Shown here piece by piece: positions 2,164 to 10,509 of a stretch of 10,581 nucleotides of DNA. Position numbers and translations under genes: made by a program. The first letter of the stretch is position 1. The number at the start of each line of letters is the position of its first letter. A model generated the notes under the pieces. That model made no database searches. It was not told the DNA's origin and was given only the letters and a program-made list of their open reading frames with translations. The stretch is from UHGV virus genome UHGV-0266139. One strand, 5' to 3'. This DNA is from a virus.

Positions 2164-2343
2164 TTAACAAACTTGAACGTTAATCTTTACCTGAATTTCG
2201 TATTTCTTCATTAGCTTGTAGAATCCGCTTCTATCAATTCCTTCCTTCTTAAAGAAGTTTTCCCCGCCTCGCTCAGTGTCGCTGTAAAAGCGTTTAGCAA
2301 TATCAACAATCATTTCACGAGTGAACTTAACAGGTCTAGCCAT
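2164..2343 (-). CDS. Small HTH DNA-binding protein, 59 aa (MARPVKFTREMIVDIAKRFYSDTERGGENFFKKEGIDRSGFYKLMKKYEIQVKINVQVC); first gene of the leftward operon
   Basis: Track ORF starts at a GTG (2358); the ATG at 2343 has GAGGAA 7 nt upstream. RP..F...DIA...Y....GI..FYK.MKK pattern resembles Hin/resolvase-type or Mor/C-type HTH domains (from memory). Paralogous to 5629..5856. Confidence 0.55.
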   Translation of the reverse strand: MARPVKFTREMIVDIAKRFYSDTERGGENFFKKEGIDRSGFYKLMKKYEIQVKINVQVC

Positions 2344-2443
2344 CAGTCGATTCCTCACATGTGGATTAATAATTTCTTAAAAAAGAGCATTTCGCTCTGA
2401 ACACTTGTATTTATAAAATGATTTTCAGAAAACCCTGTAAAAC

Positions 2444-2700: not shown

Positions 2701-2729
2701 TTGACAGTTGTCAATACACTTGACCTAAG
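2701..2729. promoter_or_regulatory. TTGACA-N13-TTGACCTAAG motif (contains palindrome TTGACAGTTGTCAA), copy 1
   Basis: Same arrangement TTGACA-N13-TTGACCTAGA recurs at 4318-4346; -35-like hexamers but no good -10 at 17 bp, so promoter versus operator is undecided. Confidence 0.3.
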
Positions 2730-2912
2730 CGAGAAATGGCTATCAAATTTTTTGTTTGAAAATGGTAGATCAGGATTATCAACCTTTATAACCTATTATG
2801 GCACGGAGACCTTTTGACAATTCTTTTTAAATCATTAACTTACGCCACTTTTTGGTGATTTTTTGATTAAATAATATACAATAATTTTCTATCAAAATAT
2901 TTGATGGGAATT

Positions 2913-3105
2913 GCCCCTGAAATTCTGAATTTTTGCCCCCGAATAAAATCCCCAAGATTCCACTATCCAATTTTTGCCCCTGAAACCTACTATTTTTGCC
3001 CCTGAAATTCTGGGAAACAGTGATTTTGCCCCTCATTTTTGCCCCTGAAATGACAATAATTGCCCCTGAAAATCTAATTTTTGCCCCTGAAATTTGCCCC
3101 CGAAA
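2913..3105. repeat. Array of about 9 same-orientation direct repeats, consensus TTTTTGCCCC(T/C)GAAA, mostly 21-22 bp apart (iteron-like)
   Basis: GCCCC cores start at about 2913, 2935, 2976, 2998, 3028, 3041, 3062, 3083, 3096 (hand-counted); a further copy at 5446-5455 sits inside a terminator stem. Confidence 0.7.
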
Positions 3106-3246: not shown

Positions 3247-3265
3247 GGAGGGCGTAGCCCGACTG
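3247..3265. repeat. About 20-bp direct repeat GGAGGGCGTAGCCCGACTG, copy 1
   Basis: Matches 3678-3697 (GGAGGGCTTTAGCCCGACTG) with one indel; the two copies bracket the CTAG-rich module. Confidence 0.5.
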
Positions 3266-3285
3266 CGCGAAGCGCCAACCAATTG

Positions 3286-3530
3286 CTTCTAGTAACAACT
3301 AATTTAAACTAGATGATACTAGATGGTCTTAGAAGGAATTAACTAGTTTGCTCGCTCGCTTCGCTCACTCTCAAACGTCTGCGACGCCACTGCGTGGCAT
3401 CGAGAATCACTTCTGAAAGGATTTTCTCGAAAGGGATTTAAACTAGTTACTAACTGATTCTAGAAAGATAGTAATAATCACTTTGAAGATAATAGTAGTT
3501 AACTGGTTACTAGATGATTCTAGATCACTT
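3286..3530. repeat. CTAG-rich repeat module: units at 3308-3326, 3441-3467 and 3501-3527 (AACT(A/G)GTTACTA..TGATTCTAGA) flanking a GC-rich core at about 3348-3410
   Basis: Eight CTAG tetramers within about 235 bp against a handful across the rest of the window (by eye, not exhaustively counted); units 3441-3467 and 3501-3527 match at 21 of 27 positions; the core contains GCTC direct repeats and a GCCAC/GTGGC dyad. Confidence 0.6.
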
Positions 3531-3553
3531 TAATGATCATGAAAGGTATTGGT

Positions 3554-3582
3554 ATCCCTTCGGGATTGCAACCTTCGGTTGC
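3554..3582 (+). other. Two adjacent short hairpins: ATCCC/GGGAT (3554-3566) and GCAACC/GGTTGC (3568-3582), both with TTC(G) loops
   Basis: Inverted repeats seen directly; no clean T run follows, so RNA structure or processing site rather than a canonical terminator. Confidence 0.3.
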
Positions 3583-3677
3583 TAAATTGCTTCCTGATTA
3601 TTATTTCTCCAAAAGAAAGATTCTTATATTCTAAAGATACTTCTTCGTTTTGATGATGATTTAATCAAATCTATGAA

Positions 3678-3697
3678 GGAGGGCTTTAGCCCGACTG
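3678..3697. repeat. About 20-bp direct repeat GGAGGGCTTTAGCCCGACTG, copy 2
   Basis: See 3247-3265. Confidence 0.5.
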
Positions 3698-3786
3698 AAT
3701 ACAATCACCTTCTAAAAGAGATAAATTTTTCTCGTTATAAATAATAGTGAACTTACTTGATTCACTTTCTTTTAGAGGATACCACT

Positions 3787-4245
3787 ATGATCAATACTAA
3801 AACTCCTTTCGTACTTCTGGGTCTGGACTCTGAAAACTATGGTAACTTCCATATGCTAGAAGTTTTCGCTAATCGTGGTTATAACATCATTCGTCATTCC
3901 GAAGACTCCAACTACTCAACTGCTTTCTACGCTTTAAAACGAAATGGTCGTCCTACTGTGATCATCGACTGTTTTACTGATGAGGGTCGTCTTCAATACA
4001 ACGATATTCCAGCAATTATTGTTCGTGATGATCTGCCGTTTCAAGTCCGTGAGTATGACGTTGATTTAGGCTCTTACTACTCTTTAGCGGAACTTGACCA
4101 GATTATGGCTGATTACGGTAAACAACCCGCTCAGGAAGCCCCAGAACAAGATGAAGAAGATGAGGAAGACGAAGACTACGCTCCAATCTGTTTCTCTTCT
4201 CAGAATGGCTTCTACGGTTACGATGAAGGCTTAGATATGCTGTAA
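3787..4245 (+). CDS. Highly acidic protein, 152 aa (about 31 D/E against about 10 K/R), with poly-acidic stretch EQDEEDEEDED near the C-terminus; function unknown, candidate DNA mimic or other host-interaction protein
   Basis: Track ORF starts at TTG 3757; the ATG at 3787 has AGAGGA 7 nt upstream. Codon choice looks like a highly expressed enterobacterial gene (CTG, CGT, GGT, TTC, AAC, TAC), judged by eye. First gene downstream of the repeat-rich region. Confidence 0.7.
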   Translation: MINTKTPFVLLGLDSENYGNFHMLEVFANRGYNIIRHSEDSNYSTAFYALKRNGRPTVIIDCFTDEGRLQYNDIPAIIVRDDLPFQVREYDVDLGSYYSLAELDQIMADYGKQPAQEAPEQDEEDEEDEDYAPICFSSQNGFYGYDEGLDML

Positions 4246-4280
4246 GTTAGGTCAACCCTTTGGTGTCTTGTCAAGGGGTA

Positions 4281-4309
4281 TTGGCAAAAATTTATGACTT
4301 TTTTATGAT
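4281..4309 (+). promoter_or_regulatory. Near-consensus sigma70-type promoter: TTGGCA (4281-4286), 17-bp spacer, TATGAT (4304-4309)
   Basis: 5 of 6 matches in each hexamer with optimal spacing; sits between the acidic gene and the 48-aa ORF. Assumes an enterobacterial-type host. Confidence 0.45.
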
Positions 4310-4317
4310 TATCGCAC

Positions 4318-4346
4318 TTGACAAATTTTAACCCATTTGACCTAGA
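4318..4346. promoter_or_regulatory. TTGACA-N13-TTGACCTAGA motif, copy 2
   Basis: Same architecture as 2701-2729; lies just downstream of the promoter call and upstream of the 48-aa ORF. Confidence 0.3.
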
Positions 4347-4367
4347 TTTGTAAAGAGGATGTTAATT

Positions 4368-4514
4368 ATGAACACTACTAAGAAAGTTGATGGACGTAAA
4401 AACCCGAACCGCAAACCGTGGACCCCAAACCTGAATTTCTCAATGGTTGACTTCCATGAACGCCAGCGTCGCATTCAAGAAGAAATTGATCGCGCGATTG
4501 CTGAATCTAAATGA
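4368..4514 (+). CDS. Small basic protein, 48 aa (MNTTKKVDGRKNPNRKPWTPNLNFSMVDFHERQRRIQEEIDRAIAESK)
   Basis: ATG at 4368 with AGAGGA about 10 nt upstream, downstream of the promoter call; basic N-terminus, helical-looking C-terminus. Below the size of the supplied ORF track. Confidence 0.45.
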   Translation: MNTTKKVDGRKNPNRKPWTPNLNFSMVDFHERQRRIQEEIDRAIAESK

Positions 4515-4541
4515 GATAAAAATTTCTTTATAAATAAAATT

Positions 4542-4563
4542 GTTCCGGTTGAGATGCCGGAAC
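4542..4563 (+). other. Hairpin GTTCCGG / CCGGAAC with 8-nt loop immediately upstream of the Rha-like gene ribosome-binding region
   Basis: Perfect 7-bp inverted repeat; followed by TAGGAGGA, not a T run, so not a terminator; possible leader structure. Confidence 0.3.
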
Positions 4564-4603
4564 TAGGAGGATCATCACTAAACCGTTTAAGGGGGATTTT
4601 ACT

Positions 4604-5437
4604 ATGAATACTGTTACTACTATGAATACTGCTGTTAAAACTGCTTCTGTGTCTCTGGTTGTTGATAACACCAAACCGCTGACCATGTCTTCTCGTCAGA
4701 TTGCTGAATTTACCGGAAAAGAACACCACAAAGTTAAAGTTGATATAACTAAGATGTTGAATGCTCTAGGTTATGAAGATCACGCGAAGTTTCGCGTCAT
4801 CTATTTTGACCAATACGGACGCGAACAAAACGAATATCAACTAGACGAAGAAATGACTCTGACTCTTGTCACTGGTTACGATGTTAAGCGTCGAATGGTT
4901 GTTATTCAGGAATGGAAACGACTGAAAGAAGAAAATGAAAAACTGCGTTCTCAGCAAGTCAACCCATACGCAAACATGACTAAGCTCGATTGGATTCGTG
5001 AGGCAATGGAATTGGAAGCCGCAAACGAACAACTGATTCAAGAAAAAGAACAATTAGTTGATCTTCATATCCGTAAAGCTATTGATGCACACAGTCTTAG
5101 CCGCTTATTAGGCGAAAAACGAGGCTCTACGAAGGTACAAATGATTCTGAAAGGTTTATGTGCTGCTGGTGTTCTTGAGCGTCGTCTGGATGCTTCTGGT
5201 AAGCCTAAAGGCTATGATCTGCTTCCTCCTGGCTATATGTTCGCTCGTATGTCGGCACACGGTCAGATCGAGTTCACTGCTGATGCTATCCCGCATCTCG
5301 TAAAACTCGGATTGCTTGAAGAAGAAAAGGCCGCAACTTTGAAATTGCCACAGCCGAACAACTCACGAGCAATTGTCAATAACACTGCTTTGCTGATTCG
5401 TCAGAATGTTGGATCGCTAGAACACTTCGGACTGTAA
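4604..5437 (+). CDS. Rha-family phage regulatory protein (N-terminal Rha-like domain), 277 aa, with coiled-coil middle and C-terminal domain of unknown function
   Basis: ATG at 4604 with GGGGG 8 nt upstream. N-terminal SSRQIAEFTGKEHHKV...TLTLVTGYDVKRRMVVIQEW matches my recollection of the Rha domain pattern (VAE.FGK.H..V..DI, L.VMGFTG), not a database hit. A 13-bp tandem duplication ACTATGAATACTG (4601-4613, 4619-4631) gives MNTVTTMNTAV. Confidence 0.75.
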   Translation: MNTVTTMNTAVKTASVSLVVDNTKPLTMSSRQIAEFTGKEHHKVKVDITKMLNALGYEDHAKFRVIYFDQYGREQNEYQLDEEMTLTLVTGYDVKRRMVVIQEWKRLKEENEKLRSQQVNPYANMTKLDWIREAMELEAANEQLIQEKEQLVDLHIRKAIDAHSLSRLLGEKRGSTKVQMILKGLCAAGVLERRLDASGKPKGYDLLPPGYMFARMSAHGQIEFTADAIPHLVKLGLLEEEKAATLKLPQPNNSRAIVNNTALLIRQNVGSLEHFGL

Positions 5438-5445
5438 TAATTTTT

Positions 5446-5470
5446 GCCCCTGAATTTCAGGGGCTTTTTT
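5446..5470 (+). terminator. Strong intrinsic terminator: GCCCCTG (5446-5452) / CAGGGGC (5458-5464), T6 run (5465-5470); built on a copy of the GCCCCTGAA repeat
   Basis: Perfect GC-rich stem followed directly by TTTTTT, 9 nt after the Rha-like stop codon. Confidence 0.75.
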
Positions 5471-5473
5471 GTA

Positions 5474-5509
5474 TCTGTAGATGCGCTGAACTTTAAGCGC
5501 ATCTACAGA
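5474..5509. promoter_or_regulatory. Perfect 13-bp inverted repeat TCTGTAGATGCGC-N10-GCGCATCTACAGA, followed by palindrome GATGCATC (5514-5521)
   Basis: Seen directly; lies in the intergenic gap between the Rha terminator and the minus-strand cassette; candidate protein-binding site or second hairpin. Confidence 0.4.
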
Positions 5510-5628: not shown

Positions 5629-5856
5629 TCAAAAACCTGTTGCTTCTACGATCTGACCATCACCGATCTGAACATAGAATTTAATGTCTAACTTCTTCAT
5701 ATTCTTATAGAATTGGGCGATTGAGATCCCATGTTCACTAAGAATCTGTTCTTTCGCTTCCTTACCACGATCCGCTGTATAATAAGCGTAGGCAATATCA
5801 GCCATCTGTTCAGCGTTAAAACGGGCAGGGCGACCGCGAGTAGCTTTAGTAGTCAT
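5629..5856 (-). CDS. Small HTH DNA-binding protein, 75 aa (MTTKATRGRPARFNAEQMADIAYAYY...GISIAQFYKNMKKLDIK...), paralog of 2164..2343
   Basis: Track ORF starts at GTG 5889; ATGs at 5862 and 5856, the latter 9 nt from GGAG. RGRPARF then helix-turn-helix pattern resembles the Hin/resolvase-type DNA-binding domain (GRPR arm plus HTH), from memory. The start could be 5862. Confidence 0.55.
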   Translation of the reverse strand: MTTKATRGRPARFNAEQMADIAYAYYTADRGKEAKEQILSEHGISIAQFYKNMKKLDIKFYVQIGDGQIVEATGF

Positions 5857-5891
5857 AGTCATTTTCTCCAAATTAAAGTGAATGTTCACCT

Positions 5892-6494
5892 TTATTTAGA
5901 GGACTTACATTTTATCGGAAAAAGTTCTCCATCGTCAACCGACATAAAGAACTCTGCCTTAATCCCGTACTTCTTCAACCGTGAATAGTATGTACCCCGA
6001 CTAATATCAACCTTGCGAAGCACTTCGAAGAACTCTTTAGGATTCCTGTAATAATGGCTATAACGCACGTTAGCGAGTTCAACGAATAGTTCCCTTGTAT
6101 CACCATAGCCTTTCTTGAAAGCCTCGTTACGATAGCGTGTAATAGCGTGATTCGATCTCTTCTGTTTAAGCACTTCCCTGATCGGCTTCCACTGCAACCG
6201 ATAGATTGGACCGCCATCCACTCGATAATAACGCTTGATATCAAAATCAAACCATTCACGGACTCGCTGAAACTCTGTCTGTGATGTTCGGTGCTTCTTA
6301 AAGAAGTTATGAATATCGGTATACCCATGATCGCGATACAACTCGATTAAAATCTCTTTCGCTTCCTCACGACTAAAGCCAGATGTTGTGTAGTCGGTTT
6401 TTAAATGCTTATGCTTAACGGGTAAACGATATTCATGATCGGTACAAGACAAGGCTAATTCTAATTCATCTCTTTCTTGCTGATTAATTAGCAT
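5892..6494 (-). CDS. Basic 200-aa protein rich in R/K/Y with a C-terminal HTH module related to the two small HTH proteins; candidate DNA-binding regulator
   Basis: ATG at 6494 with AGGAGG about 4 nt upstream; C-terminal ...[26 protein letters not shown] aligns without gaps to the 75-aa protein (IS, Y, KK, IK). No nuclease motif (GIY-YIG, HNH, LAGLIDADG) seen. Confidence 0.65.
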
Positions 6495-6581: not shown

Positions 6582-8489
6582 ATGAAACTAATTTCTAATA
6601 AGGCCAAATTAAAAAAGATTCTCAGAAATGCAGCCAAATATATTACGCCACCGCCTAAACTCCTTCCATCGGAATGGTGCGAAGCGAATATGGTGCTGGT
6701 AGATGGTCCTCAAGCTGGGGATAAAGTTAAACTGCTGTCATTCCAGAAAGGCATGATTGATGCTCCTTTCCTTGAGAACAAGAAAAAGTATGTTCTGATG
6801 ACCAGTGCGCAGATCGGAAAGACTACCATCCTGAACGGCATCCTGTTTAACCAGATGGCTAACGATCCATGCAATATGATTATCGGACAATCAACCGCTA
6901 AAGAAATGTCTCAATATCTCGCTGGTAAGATCCGACCGTCTATCGAAGCATGTGATGCATTAAAAGACGTGGTTACAGACAAGAATGATCGCAATTCGGT
7001 TAATAACAATAACCAGCTACAGCTCAAAACGAATCACTTCCTGTACATGGTATCGCTTACCAGCCCATCAACCCTACGTGGTAAGACCGCAAAGGTTGGA
7101 TTACTTGACGAAATTGATGCTGCCACAGCCTCAGAAGAAGGTGATCCGGTGGCACTGGCTGCTAACCGTTTAACTACCTTTGGAGATGAAGGTCGATTAG
7201 TCGTATCCAGTACCCCGACCAGTAAGCTGGGAAGCATTAACCAGCAATGGTTATCAAGCGATATGCGTATGTTTTTTGTTCCGTGTCCTCATTGCGGGGA
7301 ACACCAGGTGATCGAGTGGGAAAACGTTCAATTTGAATGGCGTAACATCGATGGTAAGAACTTACCCGATCCTGATACCGCTCGTTATATTTGCCCCCAC
7401 TGTAAGAACGCATGGACAGAAGGGGAACGAATCAGGGCAGTAGCGCAAGGCGAGTGGAGAGCAACCCGTGAAAGTGAAGTAGCAGGATTCTGGATCAGTC
7501 GTCTGTATTCACCTTTCAGCACGATTCGCGCTTGTGTGGTTGATTTTAGTCATGCGTGGCAATCCTTTGATTTACAATCCTTTTTTAACACCGTGTTAGG
7601 CAAGGTATACGATGATCAGGACACGGCAGTAGAAGCAAATGAACTGGAACAACTCAAAACAGATGTTTCTATCGAGAATATCCCTGATGACGTGATTTTC
7701 TTGTGCTCAGGAATTGACCAGCAATTGGACCGCGCAGAATCTACCATCTTAGGTGTAGCGAAAGATAAGGTTTACATTCTGGATCACCGTAGCTTTTACG
7801 ATCATAACTGTGAACGATATGAATCCCCTGTATGGGATCGTCTGATTAACTTCAAGAAAACCAAATTCTATAACGTTAATGGTGAACGTGTGCCAATGCT
7901 CGCCAGCTTCCTTGATACATCGAACGGTCGATTCACTCAAGCCGGATACCGTATTTGCGGCAAGTGGAAGAACCTACACGCTATCAAAGGTAGTTCATCT
8001 GGTAATGCTCCAGTGATTCCGGTTAAACCTACCCGCACAGGTGGTCATGAATTGCTTATGCTGGGTGTTAACGTTGGTAAATCCGCTGTTCGTGAAATGC
8101 TGGTTAGAAACCTGAAAGATAATCCTCATATTGGCTTAGAAATATCAGAAACCGTTCCTGATGATTATCTCGATCAGCTTTTGAGTGAATCCATCAAGCG
8201 TACTACTACTGGCGTGCGTTGGGTGAAAAATCCAGGTAGTACCCGAAACGAGGCTCTCGACTGTCTGGTTTATAGCTATGCTGCTTCTCGCTACGTCCTT
8301 TCAAAAATGTCATGGGATAAACTCATTGCAATGAAAGACAGCTTAAACCGTGTTGTCGAAGAATCCGTAGAAGCTCCTAAATCGCAATCTGACGAGCAAA
8401 TAGAAGAAACTAAGCCAATCACACGACCACAACGTCAAAACATCGCCAGACGTCCAAATAGAGGCCGTAGCTGGGTAACATCGTTCTAA
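6582..8489 (+). CDS. terL: Terminase large subunit, lambda gpA type, 635 aa
   Basis: ATG with GAGGG 7 nt upstream. Walker A-like SAQIGKTT, acidic VGLLDEID, zinc-ribbon CPHCGEHQ...CPHC, and blocks [32 protein letters not shown] match lambda gpA (ACPHCGEEQ, YSPFTTW, AGIDSQLDR, RNEALDCFVYALAA) from memory; size matches (lambda 641 aa). Confidence 0.9.
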
Positions 8490-8561: not shown

Positions 8562-9056
8562 ATGAGTTTAGAACTAATTCCCTTAGTAATTCGTAAAGGC
8601 GAAAAAATCACGCTGGCGAATGAAGAGGGTGTAACAATTCAGGTAGGAAATAGTAAAGGTATCATTTATCAGGTTGATGATACTCCGGCTAATCACGAGA
8701 TTAAAACCTTAGATTTTGCCGAAGGTAAATATACCATCGTAACCACGTTGGAAGATGAACTGGTATCAATGCAGGAATTAACTGTATTGCCGGTATTCGC
8801 CAAACAATCCAAAAAAGAATATCTGCGGGAAACTATCGCCACAATCGAGCAAGTTATTTTCGCCCGTTTATCTGGGGACGAAGCCGCATTATCTCAAATG
8901 ACAGTGAAAGGGAATACTTTCGCCTATGAGTCATTGGCTGTTCTCCAGCAATTGAAGACTGATTATGAACGTCAGTTATCTAAATTAATTCAAGCCGAAC
9001 GACGTAAACAGGGAATTAGCCCGATTAAAAATATTAAAGTACGTCTTACGCGATAA
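8562..9056 (+). CDS. Head-tail joining protein, gpW-like C-terminal region with an extra N-terminal region of about 95 aa; 164 aa total
   Basis: ATG with AAGGGG 5 nt upstream; stop abuts the portal ribosome-binding site. C-terminal about 65 aa (ARLSGDEAALSQMTVKGNTFAYESLAVLQQLKTDYERQ) resembles lambda gpW (68 aa) in pattern and in position between terminase and portal; the N-terminal region has no lambda counterpart. Confidence 0.55.
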   Translation: MSLELIPLVIRKGEKITLANEEGVTIQVGNSKGIIYQVDDTPANHEIKTLDFAEGKYTIVTTLEDELVSMQELTVLPVFAKQSKKEYLRETIATIEQVIFARLSGDEAALSQMTVKGNTFAYESLAVLQQLKTDYERQLSKLIQAERRKQGISPIKNIKVRLTR

Positions 9057-9066
9057 GGGGTAAATC

Positions 9067-10509
9067 ATGTTTAATCTTTTTCGACGCAAAAAGGCGGTAG
9101 AAACTCCAGTTAAAACTAATCACCGCCAGCAACAACCAAAAATTTTCATCGACAAACAAGTAGAAAAATTCCAGAAAGATTTGTCTAAGCGTTCTTTGGG
9201 CTTGGTCGGTGATCGCATTGATGGATCGCTTCAACAAGATACTATCACAGGAACCTTCAATAAGGCTCTCAAATCGAACGGTAAGCGCCTTTATGATCAG
9301 GGTCGTACTCTGGCCTTAAACACTTCCGTAGGCAGTCGCTACACGCAATACATCACCGATATGGTGGTTGGTACTGGCCTAGATCCGAAGCCGTCAGTTG
9401 TTAAATCAAATGGAAAACTTGATAGCGCACTGAATAAGCAGATCGAGAATGCTTTCTGGAAGTGGGCGCAGAATGCTAAACGCTTCTCTCGTAACGGTCG
9501 CTTTAACTTCCGTGAACTGCTGGTAATGGCTGAACGTGAGCGCGTTATGGGTGGTGAGTGCTTCATAGTTTTAACCAAAGAAAACAATGAGTTAAATGTT
9601 TCTATCCTGTCTGCTGATAAGTGCGACTGGACGCTCAACCGTGAAGTAAGCAAAGAACGTGCTATCTATCAGGGGATAGAGTATGACGTAGAAACAATGC
9701 GCCCTGTTGCATACTGGTTTCGTAAAATCAACCTACTGACTCAGACTTACACAGGTGATAACTATCGCGTAGATGCTTCGCAAGTATGCCATTATTATCA
9801 ACCACTTGCGGCTGAATCTCTGCGTGGTGTGACTGACTTCCTGCCAGTGATCAAGGATATTGCGCATCAAGACGCATTCCGCGAAACCGCGATCATCCAG
9901 AAACGTATTGCAGCTAGCTCTATGGGCTTTATCGAACGTCCGAAAGATTCTGGTGACGATTTTGATACTGGTGAAGAGGATGAACAATATCAAGCGCCGG
10001 AAGTAGTACAGGATTTTGCACCGGGTACTATTCAGGAATTGCCGGAAGGGGCAACGATCAAGAGCATCCAGGCGACGCAAAGCGGTGATGATTTCAATTC
10101 CTTCAATGATGCGATGTTTACTAGCGTATCAATGGGCTTAGGCGTGTTTAAACAGGGCTTGACTGGTGATACTTCCCAGATCAACTACTCAGCCGCGCGT
10201 TTCGGTGAACTACTTCAACGTAACCGTGTTAAATCGCTACAAAACAAATTGATTGAAACAGTGGTATTGCCAATTTTTGAAGCATATCTACGCCATTATT
10301 CCGCGCGTGGTATTGTTCCGATTCGTATTACTGCAATCCCGCATATTATCGATAACACTACTATTATTCGTCCGCGTTTTGAGTCCGTCGATGTTATTAA
10401 AGATGTGAACGCTGATATTGCTTTAATTGATAACGGACTTAGAATCTATCCCAAAAGGATTTTATTCCAGACAATGATGCTGCAAGCAAAATGCAGCATC
10501 GCCTCGTAG
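9067..10509 (+). CDS. Portal protein, lambda gpB type, 480 aa
   Basis: ATG with AAGGGG 6 nt upstream. Blocks FWKWAQNAKRF...NFRELLVMAERERVMGGECFIV and GLGV...YSAAR parallel lambda gpB (AAWKEFAED...TFTMMIREGV...GELFV; GLGVSYEQLSRNYAQMSYSTAR) from memory; correct synteny after terminase and gpW. Confidence 0.85.
   Translation: MFNLFRRKKAVETPVKTNHRQQQPKIFIDKQVEKFQKDLSKRSLGLVGDRIDGSLQQDTITGTFNKALKSNGKRLYDQGRTLALNTSVGSRYTQYITDMVVGTGLDPKPSVVKSNGKLDSALNKQIENAFWKWAQNAKRFSRNGRFNFRELLVMAERERVMGGECFIVLTKENNELNVSILSADKCDWTLNREVSKERAIYQGIEYDVETMRPVAYWFRKINLLTQTYTGDNYRVDASQVCHYYQPLAAESLRGVTDFLPVIKDIAHQDAFRETAIIQKRIAASSMGFIERPKDSGDDFDTGEEDEQYQAPEVVQDFAPGTIQELPEGATIKSIQATQSGDDFNSFNDAMFTSVSMGLGVFKQGLTGDTSQINYSAARFGELLQRNRVKSLQNKLIETVVLPIFEAYLRHYSARGIVPIRITAIPHIIDNTTIIRPRFESVDVIKDVNADIALIDNGLRIYPKRILFQTMMLQAKCSIAS

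Follow-up and report, generated by a model that had tools for sequence, protein, structure and literature searches.

A swappable 48-codon gene in an Escherichia coli prophage lineage encodes a putative moron-like accessory protein

Introduction

In acr-aca operons, variable genes for small inhibitors lie upstream of a conserved gene for a DNA-binding autoregulator, such as Aca1 or Aca2. Lambdoid phages produce small basic proteins from their early genes, among them Cro, N with its arginine-rich motif, and CIII. Morons are independent accessory transcription units in prophages, for example gene 15 of HK97 (Cumby, Davidson and Maxwell, 2012, PMC3594210).

Here we analyzed a 48-codon open reading frame (ORF) on the plus strand of the virus genome UHGV-0266139. 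Throughout the text, "the window" refers to the whole stretch of 10,581 nucleotides that was analyzed, and coordinates are those of the window unless another locus is named. Like a moron, the gene is small, belongs to no known family and lies behind its own predicted near-consensus sigma-70 promoter. Its locus resembles an acr-aca operon, in architecture only, in that interchangeable unrelated ORFs of 48–110 aa are followed directly by a conserved Rha-family gene. As with the early products of lambdoid phages, the encoded peptide is small and basic, and its gene is the first after what appears to be an operator-controlled, early-type promoter.

Results

The window represents the left part of a ~37-kb E. 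coli prophage inserted in ycdX; in strain UTME-9, where the prophage is likewise ~37 kb long, ycdX is split and a large serine recombinase is encoded at the far end. Besides a Rha-family regulator gene, the window carries genes for a lambda-type gpA large terminase (6582–8489), a head-tail joining protein (8562–9056) and a lambda-family portal (9067–10509), together with several proteins without a family match. The gpA-type terminase gene has no adjacent small-terminase gene and is preceded by two leftward genes; in the UTME-9 prophage, a 183-aa protein encoded ~6 kb to the left (L001 4061–4612) gave a weak Nu1-like match below the cutoff (E = 0.0095). The closest phage terminase is 43% identical to that of the window. 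A megablast search with positions 3700–5500 returned no match among cultured phages, none of which is close at the DNA level, and no match among plasmids; among RefSeq E. coli genomes, the region holding the 48-aa ORF matched 58 chromosomes and 0 plasmids. Rfam and tRNA scans of the window found nothing, and literature searches combining ycdX with prophage, Rha with anti-defense and Rha with antirepressor yielded nothing on this prophage or on the peptide. The prophage family is a poorly studied E. coli lineage.

The ORF runs from an ATG at 4368 to a TGA at 4512–4514 and encodes MNTTKKVDGRKNPNRKPWTPNLNFSMVDFHERQRRIQEEIDRAIAESK, a peptide of 48 aa with a pI of 10.15 (~10.2) and a charge of +3.6. 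As the original prediction had it, this short ORF is preceded by a strong Shine-Dalgarno sequence, a TTGGCA-17-TATGAT promoter and a TTGACA-N13 motif, all of which were recovered at the expected positions. With a GC content of 0.442, the ORF does not deviate from its neighboring genes (0.406–0.445) or from the window overall (0.406). An AlphaFold2 model gives a helix for residues 26–47 with a pLDDT above 90, as had been suspected from the sequence, and a low-confidence coil for residues 1–25; the C-terminal helix is predicted to be amphipathic. The N-terminal arm had been described as basic and AT-hook-like. The peptide is indeed basic, but the resemblance to an AT-hook does not hold: the core Arg-Gly-Arg-Pro is absent, the peptide having D-G-R-K-N-P (GRK, and no GRP core), and there is no Pfam AT-hook match at E ≤ 0.1.

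Nor was the ORF overlooked by gene callers, as had been assumed, since NCBI PGAP already annotates it in RefSeq, as "hypothetical protein" in every RefSeq locus inspected (e.g., WP_167552671.1 and WP_001098357.1); metagenome gene callers call it too. The peptide itself is already annotated in this way and is uncharacterized. Proteins P0001 and P0003–P0005 are 75-aa metagenome calls for the ORF that begin in the promoter region and read TGA as Trp (…ESKWDKNFL); these apparent homologues were rejected as artefacts of an alternative genetic code setting (TGA as Trp, with an upstream start). An upstream in-frame ATG at 4359, which would give a 51-aa version, was also rejected as the start codon. 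It abuts the Shine-Dalgarno sequence with zero spacing, and its GGATG belongs to the flank common to other cassettes, whose ORFs begin at the position equivalent to 4368.

Whether related genomes conserve the frame, and with what dN/dS, had been proposed as a check of the ORF, a lack of such conservation counting against it. The outcome favors the ORF: the frame was intact in all 21 carrier loci examined and in 27 of 27 flank-anchored slots. At the protein level, the carriers fall into three alleles, one 48 aa long and two 50 aa long; comparisons between them give a pS of 0.33–0.44 and a pN/pS of 0.09–0.22. Between these three alleles, an excess of synonymous changes was found (binomial p of 8e-6 to 9e-4), and codon positions 1, 2 and 3 contain 5, 6 and 18 variable sites, respectively. 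The other two plus-strand frames gave no comparable selection signal. Alternatively, there might be no gene on the plus strand at all, the signal arising from an antisense ORF of 48 codons (4328–4474, minus strand) or from a non-coding element. The antisense ORF is as long as the plus-strand ORF, and its frame also shows a low pN/pS of 0.19–0.35, which is explained by the wobble positions that it has in common with the plus-strand frame. However, its ATG is lost and an in-frame stop gained in L014 and L022, a stop is also gained in L006, no Shine-Dalgarno sequence is present upstream, and the ORF extends into the flank common to unrelated cassettes, making this explanation extremely improbable. 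The conceptual translation, conservation, pN/pS, homologues, the AlphaFold2 model and the PGAP annotation all point to positions 4368–4514 (plus strand) as the gene of a small basic protein, which represents allele A of a swappable cassette. Judged by its pattern of substitutions, the ORF is a real, selectively maintained protein-coding gene, with a ribosome-binding site and a conserved predicted sigma-70 promoter of its own.

Among 1.84 billion representative proteins, a profile search recovered only two genuine distant homologues, P0010 (57 aa) and P0011 (68 aa), whose genes occupy the same genomic position in related phages, and a second profile search added no further family members. At the protein level, homologues are ~45–60% identical. 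The residues R15, K16, W18, P20, N21, L22, F24, D28, H30, R32 and R34 are invariant in the family, and their positions place the conserved core at the junction of the "disordered" arm and the helix, reaching into both. For the 48-aa peptide, nothing above threshold was found in Pfam, PHROGs, PADLOC (defence models only) or NCBIfam; tblastn against phages gave no match, and a profile search of PDB sequences gave chance-level matches only. The sole Pfam match, to PAZ_3 (E = 0.009, 17 bits vs a cutoff of 27), was taken as chance. Two Verrucomicrobiota loci from a genome-contig scan were discarded as spurious, their exact ERQRRIQEEI strings lying in charged low-complexity parts of unrelated proteins of 222 and 241 aa, and a beta-clamp-binding motif (QLxLF) was rejected by inspection, as P-N-L-N-F does not fit it. 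On the basis of these searches, the 48-aa peptide is an orphan family confined to one E. coli/Shigella prophage lineage (~37 kb, ycdX) and its sister lineage.

Upstream of the ORF, the Shine-Dalgarno sequence AGAGGA (4354–4359, plus strand) lies 8 nt before the ATG and is part of the conserved 5′ flank of all cassette types. The predicted sigma-70 promoter TTGGCA-17-TATGAT (4281–4309, plus strand; −35 at 4281–4286, −10 at 4304–4309) matches the consensus at 10 of 12 positions. Since 10 promoter-like sites were observed in the region vs 13.1 expected from shuffles of this AT-rich DNA, such a match alone is not more than chance would give, and the significance of the promoter derives from the conservation of its hexamers across relatives. 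In an alignment of 25 loci (the window and 24 relatives), 22 of the 24 relatives have TTGACA at −35, L014 and L022 having the TTGGCA of the window; at −10, all aligned loci except L001 (TATGGT) have TATGAT. The Shine-Dalgarno sequence is nearly constant in the 25 loci, and the promoter spacer as well as the stretches between the boxes are variable. Prediction plus conservation supports the view that the 48-aa gene has its own promoter.

This putative promoter is flanked by operator-like composites. Downstream, TTGACA-N13-TTGACCTAGA (4318–4346, plus strand; TTGACA at 4318–4323 and TTGACCTAGA at 4337–4346) covers the expected transcription start and the leader; upstream, TTGACA-N13-TTGACC is found on the minus strand (4250–4274), with conserved boxes and a variable inter-box sequence. 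The composites at 4250–4274 (minus strand) and 4318–4342 (plus strand) are mirror images with a common center at 4296, in the promoter spacer. A third composite of the form TTGACM-N13-TTGACM (2701–2725, plus strand) overlaps the −35 of a leftward near-consensus promoter, TTGACA-17-TATACT (2714 to 2686, minus strand), in a 1.4-kb non-coding hub. The window holds 3 copies of TTGACM-N13-TTGACM vs 0.02 expected, and neither the other 27 kb of the prophage nor a sister lineage, L029, contains any. Around the promoter of the 48-aa gene, one inner box immediately precedes the −35 and the other covers the expected transcription start, which suggests a repressor-type layout. A promoter flanked by such operator-like boxes does not imply that the gene is expressed from a repressed prophage. 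A candidate for binding the TTGAC composites is Rha, since the L029 lineage lacks both Rha and the composites; this is one evolutionary contrast only.

Between the cassette and rha, the hairpin GTTCCGG-N8-CCGGAAC (4542–4563, plus strand) lacks a plus-strand U-tract and is kept at the same position in relatives. In L003, L005 and L023, a different hairpin replaces it which pairs only with G-U pairs and accordingly forms only as plus-strand RNA. The Rha-family regulator gene (4604–5437, plus strand) was assigned by Pfam PF09669 (E = 2.7e-11) and by PHROG anti-repressor families. The next plus-strand terminator in the window after the hairpin lies beyond rha and consists of GCCCCTGAATTTCAGGGGC followed by a T-run (5446–5464, plus strand), identified as an intrinsic terminator by the terminator scan. 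Since no plus-strand terminator separates them, the small ORF and rha are probably co-transcribed, with 5446–5464 as the likely end of the transcript.

Several further features were noted around rha. A perfect AGGAGG (4565–4570) follows the hairpin, ~35 nt before the rha ATG, and no standard start codon comes after it; the frame is open from ATC 4571 into rha (4571–4603), and GGGGGA at 4591–4596 is the likely ribosome-binding site of rha. At the start of rha (4600–4631), two exact copies of a 14-nt direct repeat, TACTATGAATACTG, lie 18 nt apart, which gives two in-frame ATG AAT ACT starts (M-N-T-V-T-T-M-N-T). The 10-mer CCTGAATTTC is present in the 48-aa ORF (4430–4439, as codons for N-L-N-F) as well as in the terminator after rha (5449–5458). 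Protein P0009 (47 aa) reads like the result of a deletion between two CCTGAATTTC copies, by which rha is removed and the first 24 residues of the peptide are fused to the frame after rha.

A search with positions 4246–4603 identified 56 E. coli genomes with the flanks. The 48/50-aa ORF is present in 24 of these and a 110-aa acidic ORF in ~24, the latter count being judged from match spans and two sequenced examples; 3 genomes contain a 59-aa basic ORF. The 5′ flank alone was found in 3 genomes, the one inspected being an IS1-disrupted 110-aa copy, and the 3′ flank alone in 2, the one inspected being a deletion fusion. The 48/50-aa, 59-aa and 110-aa protein types are mutually unrelated and belong to no known family. 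Behind the same flanks, relatives encode the 48-aa peptide, a divergent 57-aa homologue, the unrelated 59-aa basic protein or the unrelated 110-aa acidic protein. Homology between the cassette types ends at the ATG and returns within ~10 nt after the stop codon; the flanks common to all relatives comprise the promoter, the TTGAC boxes, the ribosome-binding site and the downstream RNA hairpin. When IMG/VR was searched with the 5′ flank alone as anchor, all 27 contigs obtained had an intact ORF, 17 of the 110-aa and 10 of the 48/50-aa type. No empty slot was seen among these 27 contigs and, apart from the IS1 and deletion derivatives, the variation consists of replacement. The alignments indicate that the slot is a replacement locus, not an insertion, and that recombination swaps its content exactly at the ORF boundaries. 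The mean pairwise difference within allele A is 0.009 vs 0.06–0.30 in its flanks, which fits a recent horizontal spread of this allele by recombination in the conserved flanks.

No Pfam, PHROGs, PADLOC or NCBIfam match above threshold was obtained for the 59-aa and 110-aa alternatives or for the acidic protein encoded upstream of the slot. A Foldseek search of the PDB with the AlphaFold2 model of the 110-aa alternative (pLDDT 69) found no match at E ≤ 0.001 and so offers no clue to a function that the cassettes of the slot might have in common. Strains 14EC017 and PK8568 have lost the promoter and operator region through a deletion that joins the N-terminus of an acidic-protein homologue to the 59-aa cassette (L028 2248–2490). 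In L021 (2121–2935), IS1A is inserted in the 110-aa cassette, and the DNA from there to a tail-fibre gene, with rha and the packaging genes, has been lost; from its gene content, L021 is a decayed prophage.

The gene directly upstream of the slot encodes the acidic protein of 152 aa (3787–4245, plus strand; pI 4.05, charge −21), which varies independently of the cassette. Allele clusters of the acidic protein and of Rha each occur with 48-aa, 50-aa, 59-aa and 110-aa cassettes, the cassette type being shuffled. In the sister lineage L029, whose terminase is 74% identical, the peptide is kept, Rha and an acidic-protein homologue are absent, and the upstream gene is non-homologous. Although its leader is unrelated, the L029 copy again lies just downstream of a near-consensus promoter, TTGACA-17-TAGTAT, which has an upstream TG; the stop codon of the ORF is directly followed by an intrinsic terminator (5215–5236 of L029).

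These combinations bear on the functions that had been proposed for the peptide. A partnership with the adjacent acidic protein was not supported: the acidic protein is found with every cassette type, its alleles are not tracked by the cassette, and the L029 peptide is encoded beside a non-homologous gene. Since both the acidic protein and Rha combine freely with the cassettes, and L029 has the peptide without either, a dedicated partnership is unlikely. The evidence also speaks against a local DNA-binding regulator or a binder of the repeat arrays, as the same cis elements accompany the unrelated 110-aa or 59-aa protein, and the peptide has neither an HTH nor an AT-hook. No HTH family was found for it in Pfam, PHROGs or NCBIfam, and the AlphaFold2 model consists of one helix (26–47) and coil. 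Because the promoter, boxes, ribosome-binding site and hairpin stay the same no matter which protein occupies the slot, these elements are unlikely to depend on the 48-aa product; their constancy across cassettes argues against a Cro-like regulator, a repeat-array binder and an N-like factor acting on the hairpin. Regulator and operator do not co-vary: the same TTGAC boxes occur with the 59-aa and 110-aa cassettes, and L029 has the peptide without the boxes. No evidence was found for the suggested role as a packaging accessory, to which the same replacement argument applies.

The non-coding hub contains additional elements. Two LexA-box-like sites, CTGTATATCCGATCAG and CTGTATATCTAACCAG (2445–2460 and 2530–2545; CTG-N10-CAG), lie 85 bp apart upstream of a leftward gene for a 64-aa HTH-like protein (2164–2358, minus strand), and the extended motif CACTGTATAT-N5-CAGTG was found in 10 related loci; from these sites, the leftward genes may be under SOS control. 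Eight TTTGCCCC(T/C)GAA repeats, mostly ~21 bp apart, form an array (2910–3104; the TTTGCCCCTGAAA array) that looks like iterons or terminase-binding sites, and its word GCCCCTGAAAT, as a palindrome, forms the terminator after rha (5446–5464). A second repeat family in the hub, ACTAGATGAT(A/T)CTAGA-like and with internal dyad symmetry, is represented at 3307–3333, 3441–3464 and 3501–3525. Two adjacent short hairpins with UUCG-type loops (ATCCCTTCGGGAT and GCAACCTTCGGTTGC; 3540–3590) and a duplicated GGAGGGC-N2-TAGCCCGACTG element (3248–3266 and 3679–3697) suggest structured RNA in the hub; neither the hairpins nor the duplicated element matched Rfam. Three family-less proteins of 64, 86 and 200 aa (2164–2358, 5629–5889 and 5892–6494, all minus strand) have, by eye in the translations, a common C-terminal segment, ...G(I/V)(S/D)R..(F/Y)Y...KK..I..., which the 200-aa protein seems to hold twice. 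They look like paralogous small HTH-like regulators and are candidate binders of the repeat families.

Discussion

Our analysis suggests, with a probability of roughly 0.6, that the 48-aa peptide is a moron-like accessory protein acting in trans, produced from behind its own promoter in a swap slot and directed at a target elsewhere, in the host or in competing elements, rather than being a local factor. In common with morons, the gene is independent of its neighboring genes, allele A appears to have spread horizontally, being nearly identical in backgrounds that differ by 6–30%, and the L029 copy also has its own terminator. It differs from them in several respects. Its GC content of 0.442 is not deviant. 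In the lineage of the window, it has no terminator to itself and seems to be the first gene of an operon with rha, and operator-like boxes flank its promoter. The slot is a replacement locus never seen empty, whereas a moron insertion adds DNA. In view of the GC content, the missing terminator in this lineage and the ever-filled slot, we refer to the gene as moron-like and not as a moron.

According to the model that we propose, the 48-aa ORF would be the promoter-proximal gene of a two-gene transcript, the small ORF followed by rha, that ends at 5446–5464. A protein binding the four symmetric TTGAC boxes would control the promoter, and the same composite covers the −35 of the leftward hub promoter. 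The segment RK-x-W-x-P-N-L-N/D-F...D-F/Y-H-E/D-R and the single amphipathic helix would then bind a host protein or a protein of a competing phage, with host takeover, counter-defence and exclusion as possible roles, and the peptide would act neither on the neighboring cis elements nor on the neighboring proteins. A promoter flanked by putative operators and close to a regulatory hub would be equally fitting for a gene with an early regulatory role, and given its basic charge and arginine-rich helix, the peptide may bind nucleic acids.

The serious rival to this interpretation, though considerably less likely, is a small modulator of the lysis-lysogeny decision that acts in trans, for instance a small antirepressor or, like lambda CIII, an inhibitor of a host protease, made from an early promoter together with Rha. 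The ORF is located beside the regulatory hub, which contains the two LexA-box-like sites; TTGACM-N13-TTGACM is also found at the leftward promoter, the downstream gene product is Rha/anti-repressor-like, and the predicted single amphipathic helix recalls lambda CIII. Small LexA-controlled antirepressors that act in trans are known from the Gifsy prophages of Salmonella (PMC3121763). However, the LexA-like boxes lie at a distance of ~1.8 kb and are oriented toward the leftward genes, and no repressor gene was identified in the prophage. The unrelated 59-aa and 110-aa replacements occur with identical putative operators, so that co-variation of the immunity type is not apparent. A small DNA-binding regulator of the Cro-like or AT-hook-like kind, or a packaging accessory, acting on the nearby repeat arrays or operators is still less probable. 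The peptide has a pI of 10.15 and is encoded by the first gene behind an operator-flanked promoter, with repeat arrays and a terminase gene nearby, and its arginine-rich helix (ERQRRIQEEIDR) with an RNA hairpin downstream is reminiscent of lambdoid early products. Unlike these, it has no HTH and no sequence similarity to them, does not co-vary with operators or hairpin, and can be replaced by an acidic protein of 110 aa next to the same cis elements; the model of one helix plus coil, the missing GRP core, and the presence of the peptide in L029 without TTGAC composites weigh in the same direction.

That the peptide specifically serves a neighbor, either by forming a charge-complementary complex with the acidic protein of 152 aa or as a Rha cofactor or inhibitor, would agree with its position adjoining both genes, with the opposite charges (+3.6 vs −21) and with the probable co-transcription with rha. 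We nevertheless regard this as quite improbable, because the same allele clusters of the acidic protein and Rha are combined with 48-aa, 50-aa, 59-aa and 110-aa cassettes, and because L029 encodes the peptide but no Rha, and has a non-homologous gene upstream. It is very unlikely that the ORF serves as an upstream ORF whose translation, and not its product, tunes rha via the conserved hairpin, so that any ORF would do. The slot is always filled by an intact ORF of variable sequence, and the plus-strand RNA hairpin is conserved by position just upstream of rha; but the amino-acid sequence is under purifying selection, protein homologues of ~45–60% identity exist, and L029, which lacks Rha, keeps a single-gene unit with its own promoter and terminator.

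Beyond the moron-like interpretation, it is conceivable, albeit doubtful, that the slot is a counter-defence or inter-phage competition locus comparable to acr-aca, in which Rha would shut the promoter via the mirror-image composites and would act on the leftward hub promoter as well. The comparison draws on architecture alone: the strong predicted promoter is flanked by inverted repeats, the mirror-image composites centered on 4296, and composites and Rha are absent together in L029, again as a single evolutionary contrast. The comparison includes no relationship in sequence or fold with an Acr or Aca protein; only three cassette families have been seen in the slot and, to our knowledge, Rha is not a known Aca family. 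If this idea were true, the slot would hold interchangeable effectors of 48/50, 57, 59 and 110 aa behind a strong promoter, Rha proteins would form a previously unrecognized class of Aca-like autoregulators, and the 48-aa peptide would represent a novel inhibitor directed at an immune or housekeeping target in E. coli.

It is common for small phage proteins to inhibit the machinery of the host or of rival phages potently and specifically. The locus described here offers a natural set of three or four unrelated small proteins with one promoter, one set of putative operators and one ribosome-binding site, an exchangeable set that could be cloned and screened. In addition, TTGACM-N13-TTGACM represents a candidate DNA site for a Rha-family regulator, a member of a very common phage family.
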